A program made the position numbers and the translations under genes. Under the pieces are notes generated by a model, which was given only the letters and a program-made list of their open reading frames with translations, was not told where the DNA came from and did not search any database. Positions 1,734 to 40,030 of a stretch of DNA of 64,000 bases are shown one piece after another. Where the stretch lies: assembly GCF_056746865.1 (NCBI RefSeq), contig NZ_CM163382.1; one strand, written 5' to 3'. Position 1 is the stretch's first letter, and every line of letters starts with the position of its first letter.

Positions 1734-1832
1734 TGCGTATTCCGCTCTATTCGATCACGGATTGGCATCGAAGTCCGATCAGCGATTCGCATCCATTCGA
1801 TCAACCGGGAACTTAACTTTTTCTACCGCTTT

Positions 1833-2588
1833 TTAACGCGTTTTTTCGCTGCTTTCCACTACCGGGGGATTTTTCCTCAGTGACTCTCCCTGAAGGACCA
1901 CCCGGTGTGAGTTATGTACCAGTCTGTCCAGGATGGCATCTGCTGTTGTTGGGTTCTCCATCAGACCATGCCATTTATCTACCGGGAACTGGCTTACCAC
2001 TATCGTGCTGCTTTGTCCGTAACGATCCTCTATGAGCTCCAGAAGGTCATTACACTGGGCGTTACTTAACTGTTCCAGCCCCAGATCGTCCAGGATTAGA
2101 ACCTGTATTTTTTGCAACTGTTTCAGATATTTCAGCCAGCTGCCATCAACACGTCCCTGAGCCAGTTGTTCCAGTAATCGCCCGGTTCTACAGTACCGGA
2201 CGCTGTGTTTCTGTCGACATGCCTGTTCGCCCAGCGCATTGGCTATCCAGCTCTTGCCACATCCTGTCGGACCGGTTATCAGCAGGTTTTTCCTGTGGGT
2301 TATGTAGTGGCCGTTCAGCAGTTCTCTCATCTGTTCAGCCCGCAGACCTCTTGAGGCCGGATAGCGCAGCCCTTCCGGTGTTGCCTGGTATTTCAGGCCG
2401 GCATTTTTTCTCAACCGTGCCACACGGCTGTTTTCCCTGCTCAGAAGCTCGTCATCAACCAGCAGCGTCAGCCTTTCCTCGAACGACAGTTCGTCGTAGG
2501 TCTGAGGCGTTTCCCGCTGCCGTATCAGGCTCCCGGCCATCGCCGGGAGTTTCAGTTGGGTCAGTTTGTTTAACAGGTTATCACTCAT
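1833..2588 (-). CDS. istB: IS21-family transposition helper ATPase IstB
   Basis: About 251 aa from ATG at 2588 (MSDNLLNKL..); Walker A motif GPTGCGKS and a DnaC/IstB-like AAA+ core; immediately downstream of istA. Confidence 0.85.
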   Translation of the reverse strand: MSDNLLNKLTQLKLPAMAGSLIRQRETPQTYDELSFEERLTLLVDDELLSRENSRVARLRKNAGLKYQATPEGLRYPASRGLRAEQMRELLNGHYITHRKNLLITGPTGCGKSWIANALGEQACRQKHSVRYCRTGRLLEQLAQGRVDGSWLKYLKQLQKIQVLILDDLGLEQLSNAQCNDLLELIEDRYGQSSTIVVSQFPVDKWHGLMENPTTADAILDRLVHNSHRVVLQGESLRKNPPVVESSEKTR

Positions 2589-2604
2589 ACTGTTGTTCCT
2601 TCTG

Positions 2605-4140
2605 TCAGTGGTAGTAGCCCGGACCACGCAGGTTTTCATGCTCTGAAGCATATGCCGGATGTTGTTCGCCCTGGCGGGATAATGGAAGCTCCAGGTTCTC
2701 CCGATGGTGACGCAGCAGATTGTCGATAAAGCGTCTGTCAGGGGCGTTATAGTGCAGGGCAACGTAACAGGCCTTTTCCAGCCGTTCCGGGCCGTATTTT
2801 TTCTGAAGTGCCAGCAGCCCCAGAACTGCACGATAAGCCAGTTCCGGATGGGGTTTTGCCTTCAGCATGGATTCAACCACCCGGCCTGTGGACGGGCCCG
2901 TACGTTTTCCCTGCTCGATCAGGCGTTCCGGTGTCCATGTCCCGTGCTGCCGGTGGCGCTCTGGCATGTGAAGCGGATTGGTTGTGTGTTTATATTCATG
3001 TGTGCTGCGCGGATGTTGCGCCACACACTGCCCCTTGTGCCAGAGCTGTACCACCGACTGCCCCGCCTTCAGTGACAGACGCTGACCGACCAGTTCGTGT
3101 GGAACGGAGTACCAGTGACGGGCATATTCAACGTGGTAGTCAGGGCCAACCTTCACAGCTTTGTATTCCGTGTATTCATAAGGTGCCAGAGGCAGCGGAG
3201 AGAGTGCTGGCGCATCCAGTATGCGGAAGCGTTCTGCACGGGTTTGATTGCCGTACCCCTTCATTGGCCGGTTATTCATGTCTGTCAGTAACTCCCTAAG
3301 GCGCGCATTCAGCGCCCTGAGCGTGTGGAAGGTTTCATTACGGATGCGGGCAAGAAGCCATCGTTCGACGATGAGGACGCCGTTTTCTGCTTTTGGTTTA
3401 TCTTTAGGTTTGCGTGGTCGGGCCGGGATGATAACCGTGCCATAGTGCTCAGCCAGTGCCTGATAACTGTCGTTGATGACAGGCTCATATCGATCGGCCT
3501 TTTTCACTGCGCTTCTGAGGTTATCGGGGATGAGCAGCTTCGGTACGCCGCCCAGGAAGGTCAGGCAACGGCTGTGGGCATTTAACCATGACATCATGTC
3601 CTGACCTTCGCACGCTTCAACGTAGGTATAGTTGGACGCCCCCATTACGGCCACGAAGATTGCCACGCGGCGTATCTCACCGGTGTCCGGATTAATAACA
3701 GGAACCGTAGGACCACAGAAGTCGATAAAAAGCTTTTCGCCGGCACGATGCTCCTGGCGCATGGAGAGACGTCGCGTTTTTTTCCACTCCCGGTAGCAAC
3801 GGCAGAAGTGCGAGTATCCCATCGCTTTGTTACCCGCCTGTGCCTTGTATTCCATCCACAACAGTTGCCGCGTCACACCTGGTTTTCTCATTTCCGTATC
3901 GAGGTACAACATGTCAGGCATTACAAGCTCTGATGCAAAGGTGTCTTTGGGCGGAAAAATGAGTTTCTCCAGCGTGTCATGGGATATATCAGCAGGTAAT
4001 GGCCATGACAGAGAAGAGGCTTTGAAGCGGGCAAGAACCTCAAAAACGGTTGAGGCGCTGATGTGTAACGTCAGTCCGATACAACGGTTAGTCAGCTTCT
4101 TGTCGAACTTGAGCTGAAGAATCTTAAAACAGGTTTCCAT
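2605..4140 (-). CDS. istA: IS21-family transposase IstA (HTH + DDE)
   Basis: 512-aa product from ATG at 4140 (METCFKILQ..) with AGGAG 5 nt upstream; N-terminal HTH-like region and central integrase/DDE-like region; followed 16 nt later by istB. Confidence 0.8.
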   Translation of the reverse strand: METCFKILQLKFDKKLTNRCIGLTLHISASTVFEVLARFKASSLSWPLPADISHDTLEKLIFPPKDTFASELVMPDMLYLDTEMRKPGVTRQLLWMEYKAQAGNKAMGYSHFCRCYREWKKTRRLSMRQEHRAGEKLFIDFCGPTVPVINPDTGEIRRVAIFVAVMGASNYTYVEACEGQDMMSWLNAHSRCLTFLGGVPKLLIPDNLRSAVKKADRYEPVINDSYQALAEHYGTVIIPARPRKPKDKPKAENGVLIVERWLLARIRNETFHTLRALNARLRELLTDMNNRPMKGYGNQTRAERFRILDAPALSPLPLAPYEYTEYKAVKVGPDYHVEYARHWYSVPHELVGQRLSLKAGQSVVQLWHKGQCVAQHPRSTHEYKHTTNPLHMPERHRQHGTWTPERLIEQGKRTGPSTGRVVESMLKAKPHPELAYRAVLGLLALQKKYGPERLEKACYVALHYNAPDRRFIDNLLRHHRENLELPLSRQGEQHPAYASEHENLRGPGYYH

Positions 4141-4372
4141 AGTGCTCCTGGATTTTCTCTTTCTGGACATTGACGTCTCCACTGGTTTAAACACGGCAAT
4201 GGAGACTGTGGTGAAAAGAGTTAATTCCCGGAGTGACTGGCAGGATGCCAATCAATGATCGGAAGCATGCCAAATCGTGATCGATTGTGATGCCAAACTG
4301 TGATCGGAGATGGATGCCAAATCATGATCGATTCGAATGCCAAACTGCGATCGATTCAGATGCCATTTTGCA

Positions 4373-26173: not shown

Positions 26174-27368
<1,195 letters not shown>

Positions 27369-27836: not shown

Positions 27837-28817
27837 TCACCTTTCGCGCCAAAACTGCAAAATTGCTTCTACAAATCTGTCAGAAATAATCCCCCGACGG
27901 GCTGCAGTGCTGAAATGACTGCTTCGCAGTGCCGTCGTCCAGTTCTCCGGTGACCGGTACGCTGAACCGTAATATCCCGTGCTTAAATCGTCCGGGTCTT
28001 CATCAGGCGCGTTCGTCAGTCCTCTTTCACCTTGTTGCTGGAAGTCGACGAAAATAATATTGGCTAAAACATTATTTTGATAATTGCCATAAATAGCTTC
28101 ATACGAATGCGGGAAATTTTCTTTCCAGTACCAGGTGGTATCGCCGCAAAACCACGGCGCGTCAGTAATATTATTAAGCTGAGAATGGTATTGTTTTAGA
28201 TCCCTACGAAAGGCTTCAACCATATGATTAAAGTGTTGAGGGTGTGACGCGTAGTCACTGGTCATTAAGTCAAATTCGCCTTGCATCCAGCATGCGCCGA
28301 GGAATTTGTTCTGCGGATTTTTTGCCAGTGCGGCTCGCGTTCTGCTGACTAAATCCTGGTACAGCGGAGTATCCGTTCCCCAACGACAAGCATCATGGCT
28401 GGCTCCGTGCCGTTCTGAATATGTCCCTTCGCTGCCCGCGGTAAAAGCCGATCCGCCACGGCAACACGGAACGATAAGAATCCCTGCATTATCAGGAATG
28501 AAGGGCAGTAATTTCCGTGCAATATGCAGTGCCTGGCCAACGGTGCCGTACTGTGTTTGATGATTCGTTGCCAGAGGATGGTGATAACCCTGCATATCCT
28601 GAACATCGTGTGGGCAGTGAGTCAGTGGAATAATGTCGTTAAAGTGACATGGCGGGCCTCCGGGATGCGTATGCGCAAATCTCGCTAATTGTTTAATTCT
28701 GGGATGAGGCGCATCTTCCCTGTCCGGTAATGGCAGTCCTTCGCCATACGCCATGGCATTAGACTGACCAGCAACGGTAAGAACATAGTAATAATCGGGC
28801 GATATTATTGCGTTCAT
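27837..28817 (-). CDS. nanS: sialate (9-O-acetyl-N-acetylneuraminate) esterase
   Basis: 326 aa from ATG at 28817 (MNAIISPDYYYVL..); SGNH/sialate O-acetylesterase-like. Confidence 0.85.
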   Translation of the reverse strand: MNAIISPDYYYVLTVAGQSNAMAYGEGLPLPDREDAPHPRIKQLARFAHTHPGGPPCHFNDIIPLTHCPHDVQDMQGYHHPLATNHQTQYGTVGQALHIARKLLPFIPDNAGILIVPCCRGGSAFTAGSEGTYSERHGASHDACRWGTDTPLYQDLVSRTRAALAKNPQNKFLGACWMQGEFDLMTSDYASHPQHFNHMVEAFRRDLKQYHSQLNNITDAPWFCGDTTWYWKENFPHSYEAIYGNYQNNVLANIIFVDFQQQGERGLTNAPDEDPDDLSTGYYGSAYRSPENWTTALRSSHFSTAARRGIISDRFVEAILQFWRER

Positions 28818-32179: not shown

Positions 32180-32782
32180 ATGAAGAATAAGGCTGATAAC
32201 AAAAAAAGGAACTTCCTGACCCATAGTGAAATCGAATCACTCCTTAAAGCAGCAAATACCGGGCCTCATGCAGCACGTAATTATTGTCTGACTTTGCTTT
32301 GTTTTATTCATGGTTTCCGGGCGAGTGAAATTTGTCGATTGAGGATTTCGGATATTGATCTTAAGGCAAAGTGTATATATATCCATCGATTAAAAAAAGG
32401 CTTTTCAACAACGCACCCGCTATTGAATAAAGAAGTTCAGGCTTTAAAAAACTGGTTGAGTATCCGTACTTCGTACCCGCATGCTGAGAGCGAGTGGGTA
32501 TTTTTATCACGTAAGGGGAATCCGCTTTCTCGGCAACAGTTTTACCATATTATCTCGACTTCCGGTGGTAATGCCGGGTTGTCACTGGAGATTCATCCGC
32601 ACATGTTACGCCATTCGTGTGGTTTTGCTTTGGCGAATATGGGAATAGATACGCGACTTATCCAGGATTATCTTGGGCATCGCAATATTCGTCATACTGT
32701 CTGGTATACCGCCAGCAATGCAGGGCGTTTTTACGGCATCTGGGATAGAGCCAGAGGACGACAGCGTCACGCTGTTTTATAG
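32180..32782 (+). CDS. fimB: tyrosine recombinase FimB (fim switch recombinase, ON<->OFF)
   Basis: 200 aa from ATG at 32180 (MKNKADNKKRNFLTHSE..); integrase-family catalytic region HMLRHSCGF..HRNIRHTVWY. Confidence 0.95.
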   Translation: MKNKADNKKRNFLTHSEIESLLKAANTGPHAARNYCLTLLCFIHGFRASEICRLRISDIDLKAKCIYIHRLKKGFSTTHPLLNKEVQALKNWLSIRTSYPHAESEWVFLSRKGNPLSRQQFYHIISTSGGNAGLSLEIHPHMLRHSCGFALANMGIDTRLIQDYLGHRNIRHTVWYTASNAGRFYGIWDRARGRQRHAVL

Positions 32783-33259: not shown

Positions 33260-33856
33260 GTGAGTAAACGTCGTTATCTTACCGGTAAAGAAGTTCAGGC
33301 CATGATGCAGGCGGTTTGTTACGGGGCAACGGGAGCCAGAGATTATTGTCTTATTCTGTTGGCATATCGGCATGGGATGCGTATTAGTGAACTGCTTGAT
33401 CTGCATTATCAGGACCTTGACCTTAATGAAGGTAGAATAAATATTCGCCGACTGAAGAACGGATTTTCTACCGTTCACCCGTTACGTTTTGATGAGCGTG
33501 AAGCCGTGGAACGCTGGACCCAGGAACGTGCTAACTGGAAAGGCGCTGACCGGACTGACGCTATATTTATTTCTCGCCGCGGGAGTCGGCTTTCTCGCCA
33601 GCAGGCCTATCGCATTATTCGCGATGCCGGTATTGAAGCTGGAACCGTAACGCAGACTCATCCTCATATGTTAAGGCATGCTTGCGGTTATGAATTGGCG
33701 GAGCGTGGTGCAGATACTCGTTTAATTCAGGATTATCTCGGGCATCGAAATATTCGCCATACTGTGCGTTATACCGCCAGTAATGCTGCTCGTTTTGCCG
33801 GATTATGGGAAAGAAATAATCTCATAAACGAAAAATTAAAAAGAGAAGAGGTTTGA
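33260..33856 (+). CDS. fimE: tyrosine recombinase FimE (fim switch recombinase, ON->OFF)
   Basis: 198 aa from a GTG start (MSKRRYLTGKEV..); paralog of FimB with HMLRHACGY..HRNIRHTVRY. Confidence 0.95.
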   Translation: MSKRRYLTGKEVQAMMQAVCYGATGARDYCLILLAYRHGMRISELLDLHYQDLDLNEGRINIRRLKNGFSTVHPLRFDEREAVERWTQERANWKGADRTDAIFISRRGSRLSRQQAYRIIRDAGIEAGTVTQTHPHMLRHACGYELAERGADTRLIQDYLGHRNIRHTVRYTASNAARFAGLWERNNLINEKLKREEV

Positions 33857-33904
33857 TTTAACTTATTGATAATAAAGTTAAAAAAACAAATAAATACAAG
33901 ACAA

Positions 33905-34218
33905 TTGGGGCCAAACTGTCCATATCATAAATAAGTTACGTATTTTTTCTCAAGCATAAAAATATTAAAAAACGACAAAAAGCATCTAACTGTTTGATAT
34001 GTAAATTATTTCTATTGTAAATTAATTTCACATCACCTCCGCTATATGTAAAGCTAACGTTTCTGTGGCTCGACGCATCTTCCTCATTCTTCTCTCCAAA
34101 AACCACCTCATGCAATATAAACATCTATAAATAAAGATAACAATAGAATATTAAGCCAACAAATAAACTGAAAAAGTTTGTCCGCGATGCTTTCCTCTAT
34201 GAGTCAAAATGGCCCCAA
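33905..34218. promoter_or_regulatory. fimS invertible element (314 bp) bounded by 9-bp inverted repeats TTGGGGCCA (33905-33913) / TGGCCCCAA (34210-34218); fimA promoter inside, here apparently in the OFF orientation
   Basis: Inverted repeats read directly; a sigma70-like promoter (TTGAGA, about 18 bp, TATGATA) lies on the minus strand next to the fimE-proximal repeat (plus-strand TATCATA at 33923-33929), pointing away from fimA. Confidence 0.75.
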
Positions 34219-34337
34219 ATGTTTCATCTTTTGGGGGAAAACTGTGCAGTGTTGGCAGTCAAACTCGTTTACAAAACAAAGTGTACAGAACGACTGCCCA
34301 TGTCGATTTAGAAATAGTTTTTTGAAAGGAAAGCAGC

Positions 34338-34886
34338 ATGAAAATTAAAACTCTGGCAATCGTTGTTCTGTCGGCTCTGTCCCTCAGTTCTACAGCGGCT
34401 CTGGCCGCTGCCACGACGGTTAATGGTGGGACCGTTCACTTTAAAGGGGAAGTTGTTAACGCCGCTTGCGCAGTTGATGCAGGCTCTGTTGATCAAACCG
34501 TTCAGTTAGGACAGGTTCGTACCGCATCGCTGGCACAGGAAGGAGCAACCAGTTCTGCTGTCGGTTTTAACATTCAGCTGAATGATTGCGATACCAATGT
34601 TGCATCTAAAGCCGCTGTTGCCTTTTTAGGTACGGCGATTGATGCGGGTCATACCAACGTTCTGGCTCTGCAGAGTTCAGCTGCGGGTAGCGCAACAAAC
34701 GTTGGTGTGCAGATCCTGGACAGAACGGGTGCTGCGCTGACGCTGGATGGTGCGACATTTAGTTCAGAAACAACCCTGAATAACGGAACCAATACCATTC
34801 CGTTCCAGGCGCGTTATTTTGCAACCGGGGCCGCAACCCCGGGTGCTGCTAATGCGGATGCGACCTTCAAGGTTCAGTATCAATAA
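34338..34886 (+). CDS. fimA: type 1 fimbrial major subunit FimA
   Basis: 182 aa with signal peptide and pilin-domain C-terminus ..ATFKVQYQ. Confidence 0.95.
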
Positions 34887-34950
34887 CCTACCCAGGTTCA
34901 GGGACGTCATTACGGGCAGGGATGCCCACCCTTGTGCGATAAAAATAACG

Positions 34951-35490
34951 ATGAAAAGGAAGAGATTATTTCTATTAGCGTCGTTGCTGCCAATGTTTGC
35001 TCTGGCCGGAAATAAATGGAATACCACGTTGCCCGGCGGAAATATGCAATTTCAGGGCGTCATTATTGCGGAAACTTGCCGGATTGAAGCCGGTGATAAA
35101 CAAATGACGGTCAATATGGGGCAAATCAGCAGTAACCGGTTTCATGCGGTTGGGGAAGATAGCGCACCGGTGCCTTTTGTTATTCATTTACGGGAATGTA
35201 GCACGGTGGTGAGTGAACGTGTAGGTGTGGCGTTTCACGGTGTCGCGGATGGTAAAAATCCGGATGTGCTTTCCGTGGGAGAGGGGCCAGGGATAGCCAC
35301 CAATATTGGCGTAGCGTTGTTTGATGATGAAGGAAACCTCGTACCGATTAATCGTCCTCCAGCAAACTGGAAACGGCTTTATTCAGGCTCTACTTCGCTA
35401 CATTTCATCGCCAAATATCGTGCTACCGGGCGTCGGGTTACTGGCGGCATCGCCAATGCCCAGGCCTGGTTCTCTTTAACCTATCAGTAA
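34951..35490 (+). CDS. fimI: fimbrial protein FimI
   Basis: 179 aa from ATG at 34951 ([19 protein letters not shown]..); pilin-like, ..WFSLTYQ C-terminus; track ORF is N-terminally over-extended. Confidence 0.9.
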
Positions 35491-35526
35491 TTGTTCAGCA
35501 GATAATGTGATAACAGGAACAGGACA

Positions 35527-36252
35527 GTGAGTAATAAAAACGTCAATGTAAGGAAATCGCAGGAAATAACATTCTGCTTGCTGGCAGGTATCCTGATGTT
35601 CATGGCAATGATGGTTGCCGGACGCGCTGAAGCGGGAGTGGCCTTAGGTGCGACTCGCGTAATTTATCCGGCAGGGCAAAAACAAGTGCAACTTGCCGTG
35701 ACAAATAATGATGAAAATAGTACCTATTTAATTCAATCATGGGTGGAAAATGCCGATGGTGTAAAGGATGGTCGTTTTATCGTGACGCCTCCTCTGTTTG
35801 CGATGAAGGGAAAAAAAGAGAATACCTTACGTATTCTTGATGCAACAAATAACCAATTGCCACAGGACCGGGAAAGTTTATTCTGGATGAACGTTAAAGC
35901 GATTCCGTCAATGGATAAATCAAAATTGACTGAGAATACGCTACAGCTCGCAATTATCAGCCGCATTAAACTGTACTATCGCCCGGCTAAATTAGCGTTG
36001 CCACCCGATCAGGCCGCAGAAAAATTAAGATTTCGTCGTAGCGCGAATTCTCTGACGCTGATTAACCCGACACCCTATTACCTGACGGTAACAGAGTTGA
36101 ATGCCGGAACCCGGGTTCTTGAAAATGCATTGGTGCCTCCAATGGGCGAAAGCACGGTTAAATTGCCTTCTGATGCAGGAAGCAATATTACTTACCGAAC
36201 AATAAATGATTATGGCGCACTTACCCCCAAAATGACGGGCGTAATGGAATAA
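35527..36252 (+). CDS. fimC: periplasmic fimbrial chaperone FimC
   Basis: 241 aa from a GTG start; PapD-like chaperone fold. Confidence 0.95.
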   Translation: MSNKNVNVRKSQEITFCLLAGILMFMAMMVAGRAEAGVALGATRVIYPAGQKQVQLAVTNNDENSTYLIQSWVENADGVKDGRFIVTPPLFAMKGKKENTLRILDATNNQLPQDRESLFWMNVKAIPSMDKSKLTENTLQLAIISRIKLYYRPAKLALPPDQAAEKLRFRRSANSLTLINPTPYYLTVTELNAGTRVLENALVPPMGESTVKLPSDAGSNITYRTINDYGALTPKMTGVME

Positions 36253-36318
36253 CGCAGGGGGAATTTTTCGCCTGAATAAAAAGAATTGACTGCCGGGTGA
36301 TTTTAAGCCGGAGGAATA

Positions 36319-38955
36319 ATGTCATATCTGAATTTAAGACTTTACCAGCGAAACACACAATGCTTGCATATTCGTAAGCATCGTTTGGCTGGTTTTTTTG
36401 TCCGACTCGTTGTCGCCTGTGCTTTTGCCGCACAGGCACCTTTGTCATCTGCCGACCTCTATTTTAATCCGCGCTTTTTAGCGGATGATCCCCAGGCTGT
36501 GGCCGATTTATCGCGTTTTGAAAATGGGCAAGAATTACCGCCAGGGACGTATCGCGTCGATATCTATTTGAATAATGGTTATATGGCAACGCGTGATGTC
36601 ACATTTAATACGGGCGACAGTGAACAAGGGATTGTTCCCTGCCTGACACGCGCGCAACTCGCCAGTATGGGGCTGAATACGGCTTCTGTCGCCGGTATGA
36701 ATCTGCTGGCGGATGATGCCTGTGTGCCATTAACCACAATGGTCCAGGACGCTACTGCGCATCTGGATGTTGGTCAGCAGCGACTGAACCTGACGATCCC
36801 TCAGGCATTTATGAGTAATCGCGCGCGTGGTTATATTCCTCCTGAGTTATGGGATCCCGGTATTAATGCCGGATTGCTCAATTATAATTTCAGCGGAAAT
36901 AGTGTACAGAATCGGATTGGGGGTAACAGCCATTATGCATATTTAAACCTACAGAGTGGGTTAAATATTGGTGCGTGGCGTTTACGCGACAATACCACCT
37001 GGAGTTATAACAGTAGCGACAGATCATCAGGTAGCAAAAATAAATGGCAGCATATCAATACCTGGCTTGAGCGAGACATAATACCGTTACGTTCCCGGCT
37101 GACGCTGGGTGATGGTTATACTCAGGGCGATATTTTCGATGGTATTAACTTTCGCGGCGCACAATTGGCCTCAGATGACAATATGTTACCCGATAGTCAA
37201 AGAGGATTTGCCCCGGTGATCCACGGTATTGCTCGTGGTACTGCACAGGTCACTATTAAACAAAATGGGTATGACATTTATAATAGTACGGTGCCACCGG
37301 GGCCTTTTACCATCAACGATATCTATGCCGCAGGTAATAGTGGTGACTTGCAGGTAACGATCAAAGAGGCTGACGGCAGCACGCAGATTTTTACCGTACC
37401 CTATTCGTCAGTCCCGCTTTTGCAACGTGAAGGGCATACTCGTTATTCCATTACGGCAGGAGAATACCGTAGTGGAAATGCGCAGCAGGAAAAACCCCGC
37501 TTTTTCCAGAGTACATTACTCCACGGCCTTCCGGCTGGCTGGACAATATATGGTGGAACGCAACTGGCGGATCGTTATCGTGCTTTTAATTTCGGTATCG
37601 GGAAAAACATGGGGGCACTGGGCGCTCTGTCTGTGGATATGACGCAGGCTAATTCCACACTTCCCGATGACAGTCAGCATGACGGACAATCGGTGCGTTT
37701 TCTCTATAACAAATCGCTCAATGAATCAGGCACGAATATTCAGTTAGTGGGTTACCGTTATTCGACCAGCGGATATTTTAATTTCGCTGATACAACATAC
37801 AGTCGAATGAATGGCTACAACATCGAAACACAGGACGGAGTTATTCAGGTTAAGCCGAAATTCACCGACTATTACAACCTCGCTTATAACAAACGCGGGA
37901 AATTACAACTCACCGTTACTCAGCAACTCGGGCGCACATCAACACTGTATTTGAGTGGTAGCCATCAAACTTATTGGGGAACGAGTAATGTCGATGAGCA
38001 ATTCCAGGCTGGATTAAATACTGCGTTCGAAGATATCAACTGGACGCTCAGCTATAGCCTGACGAAAAACGCCTGGCAAAAAGGACGGGATCAGATGTTA
38101 GCGCTTAACGTCAATATTCCTTTCAGCCACTGGCTGCGTTCTGACAGTAAATCTCAGTGGCGACATGCCAGTGCCAGCTACAGCATGTCACACGATCTCA
38201 ACGGTCGGATGACCAATCTGGCTGGTGTATACGGTACGTTGCTGGAAGACAACAACCTCAGCTATAGCGTGCAAACCGGCTATGCCGGGGGAGGCGATGG
38301 AAATAGCGGAAGTACAGGCTACGCCACGCTGAATTATCGCGGTGGTTACGGCAATGCCAATATCGGTTACAGCCATAGCGATGATATTAAGCAGCTCTAT
38401 TACGGAGTCAGCGGTGGGGTACTGGCTCATGCCAATGGCGTAACGCTGGGGCAGCCGTTAAACGATACGGTGGTGCTTGTTAAAGCGCCTGGCGCAAAAG
38501 ATGCAAAAGTCGAAAACCAGACGGGGGTGCGTACCGACTGGCGTGGTTATGCCGTGCTGCCTTATGCCACTGAATATCGGGAAAATAGAGTGGCGCTGGA
38601 TACCAATACCCTGGCTGATAACGTCGATTTAGATAACGCGGTTGCTAACGTTGTTCCCACTCGTGGGGCGATCGTGCGAGCAGAGTTTAAAGCGCGCGTT
38701 GGGATAAAACTGCTCATGACGCTGACCCACAATAATAAGCCGCTGCCGTTTGGGGCGATGGTGACATCAGAGAGTAGCCAGAGTAGCGGCATTGTTGCGG
38801 ATAATGGTCAGGTTTACCTCAGCGGAATGCCTTTAGCGGGAAAAGTTCAGGTGAAATGGGGAGAAGAGGAAAATGCTCACTGTGTCGCCAATTATCAACT
38901 GCCACCAGAGAGTCAGCAGCAGTTATTAACCCAGCTATCAGCTGAATGTCGTTAA
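36319..38955 (+). CDS. fimD: outer-membrane fimbrial usher FimD
   Basis: 878 aa; usher family. Confidence 0.95.
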   Translation: MSYLNLRLYQRNTQCLHIRKHRLAGFFVRLVVACAFAAQAPLSSADLYFNPRFLADDPQAVADLSRFENGQELPPGTYRVDIYLNNGYMATRDVTFNTGDSEQGIVPCLTRAQLASMGLNTASVAGMNLLADDACVPLTTMVQDATAHLDVGQQRLNLTIPQAFMSNRARGYIPPELWDPGINAGLLNYNFSGNSVQNRIGGNSHYAYLNLQSGLNIGAWRLRDNTTWSYNSSDRSSGSKNKWQHINTWLERDIIPLRSRLTLGDGYTQGDIFDGINFRGAQLASDDNMLPDSQRGFAPVIHGIARGTAQVTIKQNGYDIYNSTVPPGPFTINDIYAAGNSGDLQVTIKEADGSTQIFTVPYSSVPLLQREGHTRYSITAGEYRSGNAQQEKPRFFQSTLLHGLPAGWTIYGGTQLADRYRAFNFGIGKNMGALGALSVDMTQANSTLPDDSQHDGQSVRFLYNKSLNESGTNIQLVGYRYSTSGYFNFADTTYSRMNGYNIETQDGVIQVKPKFTDYYNLAYNKRGKLQLTVTQQLGRTSTLYLSGSHQTYWGTSNVDEQFQAGLNTAFEDINWTLSYSLTKNAWQKGRDQMLALNVNIPFSHWLRSDSKSQWRHASASYSMSHDLNGRMTNLAGVYGTLLEDNNLSYSVQTGYAGGGDGNSGSTGYATLNYRGGYGNANIGYSHSDDIKQLYYGVSGGVLAHANGVTLGQPLNDTVVLVKAPGAKDAKVENQTGVRTDWRGYAVLPYATEYRENRVALDTNTLADNVDLDNAVANVVPTRGAIVRAEFKARVGIKLLMTLTHNNKPLPFGAMVTSESSQSSGIVADNGQVYLSGMPLAGKVQVKWGEEENAHCVANYQLPPESQQQLLTQLSAECR

Positions 38956-38964
38956 GGGGGCGTG

Positions 38965-39495
38965 ATGAGAAACAAACCTTTTTATCTTCTGTGCGCTTTT
39001 TTGTGGCTGGCGGTGAGTCACGCTTTGGCTGCGGATAGCACGATTACTATCCGCGGCTATGTCAGGGATAACGGCTGTAGTGTGGCCGCTGAATCAACCA
39101 ATTTTACTGTTGATCTGATGGAAAACGCGGCGAAGCAATTTAACAACATTGGCGCGACGACTCCTGTTGTTCCATTTCGTATTTTGCTGTCACCCTGTGG
39201 TAATGCCGTTTCTGCCGTAAAGGTTGGGTTTACTGGCGTTGCAGATAGCCACAATGCCAACCTGCTTGCACTTGAAAATACGGTGTCAGCGGCTTCGGGA
39301 CTGGGAATACAGCTTCTGAATGAGCAGCAAAATCAAATACCCCTTAATGCTCCATCGTCCGCGCTTTCGTGGACGACCCTGACGCCGGGTAAACCAAATA
39401 CGCTGAATTTATACGCCCGGCTAATGGCGACACAGGTGCCTGTCACTGCGGGGCATATCAATGCCACGGCTACCTTCACTCTTGAATATCAGTAA
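38965..39495 (+). CDS. fimF: fimbrial minor subunit FimF
   Basis: 176 aa from ATG at 38965 ([12 protein letters not shown]..). Confidence 0.9.
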
Positions 39496-39507
39496 CTGGA
39501 GATGCTC

Positions 39508-40011
39508 ATGAAATGGTGCAAACGTGGGTATGTATTGGCGGCAATATTGGCGCTCGCAAGTGCGACGATACAGGCAGCCGATGTCACCATCACGGTGAAC
39601 GGTAAGGTCATCGCCAAACCGTGTACGGTTTCCACCACCAATGCCACGGTTGATCTCGGCGATCTTTATTCTTTCAGTCTTATGTCTGCCGGGGCGGCAT
39701 CGGCCTGGCATGATGTTGCGCTTGAGTTGACTAATTGTCCGGTGGGAACGTCGAGGGTCACTGCCAGCTTCAGCGGGGCAGCCGACAGTACCGGATATTA
39801 TAAAAACCAGGGGACCGCGCAAAACATCCAGTTAGAGCTACAGGATGACAGTGGCAACACATTGAATACTGGCGCAACCAAAACAGTTCAGGTGGATGAT
39901 TCCTCACAATCAGCGCACTTCCCGTTACAGGTCAGAGCATTGACAGTAAATGGCGGAGCCACTCAGGGAACCATTCAGGCAGTGATTAGCATCACCTATA
40001 CCTACAGCTGA
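39508..40011 (+). CDS. fimG: fimbrial minor subunit FimG
   Basis: 167 aa from ATG at 39508 (MKWCKRGYVLAAILALASA..). Confidence 0.9.
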   Translation: MKWCKRGYVLAAILALASATIQAADVTITVNGKVIAKPCTVSTTNATVDLGDLYSFSLMSAGAASAWHDVALELTNCPVGTSRVTASFSGAADSTGYYKNQGTAQNIQLELQDDSGNTLNTGATKTVQVDDSSQSAHFPLQVRALTVNGGATQGTIQAVISITYTYS

Positions 40012-40030
40012 ACCCGAAGAGATGATTGTA

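Follow-up and report, generated by a model that had tools for sequence, protein, structure and literature searches.

The element at positions 33905 to 34218 of the 64-kb stretch of DNA that we analysed (hereafter, the window) is, at a probability of about 0.96, fimS, the invertible promoter cassette for phase variation of E. coli type 1 fimbriae, and it is recorded here in the OFF orientation. Nothing that we found in the sequence speaks against the OFF call. The assignment draws on the repeats that bound the element, on the genes and accessory sites around it, on published orientation assays repeated in silico, and on comparison with complete E. coli genomes in which the same segment has been deposited in both orientations.

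The invertible element and its neighbourhood

As published, fimS is an invertible element of 314 bp with 9-bp inverted repeats (5'-TTGGGGCCA), located directly upstream of fimA (PMC8777976). The element in the window fits this definition exactly, both in repeat sequence and in its 314-bp length. The fimE-proximal left repeat (IRL, TTGGGGCCA) occupies 33905-33913 and the fimA-proximal right repeat (IRR, TGGCCCCAA) occupies 34210-34218; the two 9-bp sequences are exact reverse complements of one another, and each has a single occurrence in the 64-kb window. The earlier note had described 9-bp inverted repeats enclosing a 314-bp element, and that description was borne out. Carried outward by a repeat finder, the pairing becomes imperfect, extending over 22 nt at 77% complementarity (33892-33913 with 34210-34231), which agrees with published reports that the recombinases bind half-sites beside the 9-bp cores.

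The fim operon is known to have its promoter inside fimS (PMC8777976, PMC6727828, PMC9993118). When we scanned 33800-34400 for sigma-70-like sites, the top site was on the minus strand, with TTGAGA at 33953-33948, an 18-bp spacer and TATGAT at 33929-33924, agreeing with the consensus at 10 of 12 positions. Directed toward fimE, it stops 10 bp short of the fimE-proximal repeat's inner edge. This consensus match and the published placement of the promoter within fimS point to 33924-33953 on the minus strand as the probable fimA promoter, facing fimE in this orientation. A 10/12 match near one end of fimS agrees with the location given in the literature, but the scan itself was close to chance, returning 3 promoter-like sites where 2.0 +/- 1.4 were expected in shuffled sequences. 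A weaker plus-strand match, TTGATA-18-TAAATT at 33994-34023 (9/12), is directed toward fimA. The promoter proposed in the earlier note stands as to its strand, its TTGAGA hexamer, its 18-bp spacer, its fimE-proximal position and its direction toward fimE; the downstream hexamer is TATGAT and not TATGATA as stated there.

Transcription from this promoter would begin on the minus strand with the A near 33917, 7 nt past the -10 hexamer; after inversion this start would lie on the plus strand at about 34206, with the fimA ATG 132 nt further downstream. The primary mapping of the fimA start site was reportedly that of Olsen and Klemm in 1994; a full-text literature search for fimA start-site mapping returned a Salmonella paper as its sole match.

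Three perfect 9-bp inverted pairs other than IRL and IRR occur in the same AT-rich 801 bp. As the repeat and promoter statistics are both near chance, the reality of fimS rests on context and comparison. We therefore dropped these statistics alone as a basis for the fimS call, since they cannot establish the element.

The gene context is that of the fim switch. The order is fimB-fimE-fimS-fimA with the genes all on the plus strand, so that fimS occupies the fimE-fimA interval and the two paralogous recombinase genes lie directly upstream. The fimB ORF (32180-32782, plus strand), whose start follows the MG1655 annotation and was placed by subtracting an offset of 4508777 from MG1655 coordinate 4540957, encodes the tyrosine recombinase that inverts the switch both ways and matches Pfam Phage_integrase at E=2e-58. 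The fimE ORF (33260-33856, plus strand; 198 aa), supported by the MG1655 and 118UI annotations and by a Phage_integrase match at E=7e-56, encodes the tyrosine recombinase biased from ON to OFF (PMC9993118). FimB (200 aa) is intact, as is FimE (198 aa), and each of them matches nearly the full length of the Phage_integrase model. Downstream, fimA (34338-34886, plus strand, from its ORF and annotation) encodes the major type 1 fimbrial subunit and is the first gene of fimAICDFGH; in this orientation it would be cut off from its promoter. The remainder of the operon served by fimS, comprising fimI, fimC, fimD, fimF, fimG and fimH, extends over 34951-40933 on the plus strand, as annotated in the 100%-identical stretch of 118UI, from which annotation was transferred as window position = locus position + 9099. 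A small RNA, FimR2, is annotated in MG1655 just 3' of fimA (4543674-4543708, equivalent to window 34897-34931). With gathering thresholds, Rfam gave no family hit at this position or anywhere else in the window.

Published maps place IHF-1 adjoining IRL and IHF-2 within fimS (PMC9993118). The IHF consensus has three matches in the 64 kb, and two of the three fall at the fim switch: YAANNNNTTGATW at 33859-33871 (plus strand), just outside the left repeat at the reported IHF-1 position, and a second match at 33987-33999 (plus strand), inside fimS at the reported IHF-2 position. Both are predicted sites. A putative Fis/LRP-2 binding region at 34141-34176 (plus strand), with the core CCAACAAA at 34156-34163, was recognised as the wild-type counterpart of the mutagenesis oligonucleotide FBSFOR2 (PMC9993118). 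Judged by sequence, the accessory sites are all present, with IHF-1 by IRL, IHF-2 inside the element and Lrp/Fis at its promoter-distal end. The element also contains a unique SnaBI site (TACGTA, 33937-33942), off-centre at the promoter end of fimS, as well as the BstUI site (CGCG, 34183-34186) and the HinfI site (GAGTC, 34201-34205) used in published orientation assays.

We also noted a 16-nt inverted repeat, 88% complementary, formed by TAACTTATTGATAATA (33859-33874) and TATCATAAATAAGTTA (33923-33938). In the OFF orientation one of its arms falls in the IHF-1 region outside IRL and the other in the fimA promoter's -10 region within fimS; it may be a chance occurrence in AT-rich DNA.

Orientation of the switch

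Orientation landmarks from the literature were applied to the window and to an in-silico inversion, in which 33914-34209 were reverse-complemented and the flanks left unchanged. Digested in silico with HinfI, the CMD1258/CMD1259 amplicon (33790-34440) gave 412 + 239 bp from the window and 129 + 522 bp from the inverted form, to be set beside published values of 411 + 239 bp for OFF and 128 + 522 bp for ON (PMC6727828). Digestion of the OL20/OL4 amplicon (33645-34372) with BstUI, also in silico, gave 540 + 188 bp from the window and 294 + 434 bp from the inverted form, where the published values are 539 + 187 bp for OFF and 433 + 293 bp for ON (PMC9993118).

The BSFORBIO/BSREVBIO phase-OFF right-end amplicon has one primer inside fimS and the other beyond the right repeat. 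In silico the window yields this amplicon as a 135-bp product (34103-34237) that joins the promoter-distal end of fimS, with its Fis/LRP sites, to the fimA-side flank. The inverted form yields no product, and none is possible, since inversion places both primers on the same strand. The bases substituted in the Fis-site mutagenesis (CCAACAAA, 34156-34163) lie 46 bp from the right-hand repeat; with the switch OFF, the Fis site is reported about 50 bp from the right boundary, at the promoter-distal end (PMC9993118). Finally, the reference genome of UTI89 has been published as having its fimS OFF (10.1101/494401), and on alignment of the fimE-fimA intergenic region the window is colinear with UTI89 throughout, whereas the in-silico inverted form is not.

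The HinfI digest, the BstUI digest, the 135-bp amplicon, the Fis site and the UTI89 colinearity are thus five independent landmarks that agree on OFF for the window, and both digests give the ON pattern for the in-silico inversion. The earlier note had called the switch OFF and had named alignment to reference switch sequences in both orientations, and orientation-specific PCR or restriction assays of the source culture, as ways to check the call; the alignment, run with UTI89 as the OFF reference, and the in-silico assays both uphold it. Its further statement, that the molecule sequenced was OFF, holds for the record but is too strong for each molecule. What an assembly gives is the consensus of a population that varies in phase, and so it shows the majority orientation rather than a fixed state of the strain or of every cell.

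Comparison with other genomes and alternative readings

To compare deposited orientations, we searched 5,426 complete E. coli genomes for a 901-bp query (33600-34500, centred on fimS) in its original and its inverted version, counting as a hit any colinear match that covered at least 80% of the query. The window orientation was present in 4,459 of the 4,725 locus-bearing genomes (about 94%), and OFF is therefore the common deposited state of fimS. The inverted form was present in 251 genomes, in some at 100% identity over all 901 bases, and the carriers at this identity include DH1, DH5alpha, ER1821R and several MG1655 derivatives. The same sequence thus occurs both ways round, its breakpoints lying within the 9-bp repeats, which shows that fimS inverts and is a live switch. 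The K-12 laboratory strains deposited ON at 100% identity also include mouse-gut-passaged O16:H48 isolates. In W3110-P and related laboratory-evolution strains, an IS1 lies under the match, next to the recombinase genes, which fits the known fimE::IS1 lineages of K-12 (PMC9993118).

In MG1655 (NC_000913.3), fimS lies at 4542682-4542995, and the sequences of fimB, fimE, fimS and fimA are identical to those of the window. The two are also alike in their 9-bp repeats, 314-bp length, gene order, OFF orientation and the positions of the diagnostic restriction sites. Given this identity, the switch in the window is OFF yet reversible, and not locked. For the K-12 fim switch, the reference is Klemm (1986). 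Over the 4.5 kb around the switch, the window and MG1655 differ at three positions, 31337, 31654 and 35687. Unlike MG1655, the window has these three SNPs, an IS5 beside a truncated nanS, and different upstream content; none of these differences affects the switch. The first two SNPs precede fimB, within the long intergenic stretch between nanC and fimB, and the third changes codon 54 of FimC from GAG in MG1655 to GTG in the window (E54V). At about 26242-27222 and 28203-28817 of the window, as placed by way of the 100%-identical 118UI stretch, the IS5 transposase gene stands between a yjhR remnant and nanS, a sialate O-acetylesterase gene that is truncated here; in MG1655, nanS is intact and no IS5 is annotated there.

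Over window 22000-46000 (24 kb), the window is 100% identical to 118UI, MS6198 and ECONIH1, among others, and these isolates are of human, animal and environmental origin. Against 118UI, it shows 3 mismatches over 49.8 kb and one extra insertion element. An IS21-family insertion sequence occupies window 1734-4370. On the minus strand it has an ORF for an IstB-like ATPase at 1833-2831 (Pfam IstB_IS21, E=2e-60) and one at 2605-4251 for an IstA-like transposase, whose domains are rve and the Mu-transposase C-terminal domain. 118UI, otherwise identical, lacks this insertion sequence, and there the DNA on its two sides adjoins at a truncated cbtA-like toxin gene. In 118UI (L004, 1-905), agn43, which encodes an autotransporter adhesin, lies just upstream of the DNA that matches the start of the window, and is followed by genes of a CP4-44-like prophage remnant (antirestriction, YeeU/CbtA) that are inside the window.

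The fimS of UTI89, a uropathogenic E. coli, shares its repeats with the window, and its promoter hexamers, likewise shared, occupy the corresponding position in a colinear fimE-fimA region. Over the 481 bp between fimE and fimA, it differs from the window by about 15 substitutions and an indel of 1 bp, and UTI89 has extra unlinked recombinases such as FimX (10.1101/494401). The ipuS and hyxR switches of UPEC, which depend on tyrosine recombinases, and the hin switch of Salmonella, which depends on a serine invertase, follow the same logic, in that a site-specific recombinase turns round a short promoter-bearing segment with inverted repeats at its ends. They differ in their repeats (7 bp in ipuS; 10.1101/494401), target genes and loci, and the element in the window is fimS itself, not an analogue of these switches.

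Three other readings of the record were weighed. Were the switch really ON, the true fimA promoter would have to be another site that faces fimA in the record; the weak plus-strand match at 33994-34023 does so, and the promoter scan overall did no better than chance. Each of the five orientation checks (the two restriction assays, the orientation-specific amplicon, the Fis landmark and the UTI89 colinearity) nonetheless returns OFF, and we rejected this reading, to which we attach next to no credence. A switch locked OFF, whether by mutation of its repeats, of fimS or of a recombinase, is also very improbable. Locked states do exist in other lineages, since regulatory mutations lock fimS OFF in EHEC and an insertion sequence inactivates fimB in ST131 (10.1101/494401), and the record displays one orientation only. 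In the window, however, both 9-bp repeats are perfect and bound the full 314 bp, fimB (200 aa) and fimE (198 aa) are intact with near-complete Phage_integrase matches, and 33600-34500 is 100% identical to K-12, whose assemblies show both orientations. None of the three SNPs relative to MG1655 falls in fimB, fimE, fimS or fimA. With no lesion in the repeats, fimS, fimB or fimE, all of which are identical to MG1655, this reading was rejected as well.

The recorded orientation might instead be an assembly artefact, or an arbitrary pick from a roughly even mixture of ON and OFF. Although an assembler must output one orientation only, an intact fimE biases populations strongly to OFF, and the 94% of locus-bearing genomes deposited in the window orientation (4,459 of 4,725) fits a real majority better than a coin toss; we consider such an origin improbable. 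We thus favour a reversible fimS that was OFF in the majority of the sequenced population.

Expression state and significance

FimB inverts fimS in both directions, FimE strongly favours ON-to-OFF inversion, and the substrate for recombination is shaped by IHF (at two sites), Lrp and Fis (PMC9993118). Within fimS there is also a Rho-dependent terminator affecting fimE mRNA, and inversion of the element connects or disconnects the operon with the promoter and fimE with the terminator (PMC9993118). A literature search on 'orientational control' of fim returned a reference-list mention only.

Applied to the record, recombination at the two 9-bp repeats would flip the 296 bp between them, aided by IHF, Lrp and Fis, and with them the sole promoter of fimAICDFGH, which would be carried near one end of fimS. 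In the recorded state, this promoter would lie beside the fimE-proximal repeat on the minus strand and fire toward fimE. Because it would face fimE, fimA, which begins 120 bp past the fimA-proximal repeat, would have no promoter, and fimbriae would not be made. A flip would bring the promoter beside the fimA-proximal repeat on the plus strand, with a start near 34206, and turn the operon ON. An OFF majority is expected, as intact fimE drives ON-to-OFF inversion strongly in fimE+ strains. We infer from the sequence that fimA was probably silent in most cells of the source culture, while a minority of these cells may have been ON.

The OFF-oriented promoter, firing from about 33917, would also send transcription into fimE at its 3' end (stop at 33856), convergently with that gene, and an antisense transcript or polymerase collision could in this way lower FimE in OFF cells. 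We regard such an effect as unlikely, and the idea is an old one, not new. The fimE mRNA meets the Rho-dependent terminator in OFF cells; if real, the antisense or collision effect would add to this terminator and help OFF cells to stay able to return to ON.

The OFF orientation that fimS has in this record is already known, being the ordinary deposited state of a textbook switch, and its importance extends little beyond correct annotation. Expression prediction and read mapping based on this record should allow for an OFF reference, against which reads from ON cells would appear as a 296-bp inversion. A fimA gene that looks promoterless in the record does not mean that the strain is unable to make type 1 fimbriae.
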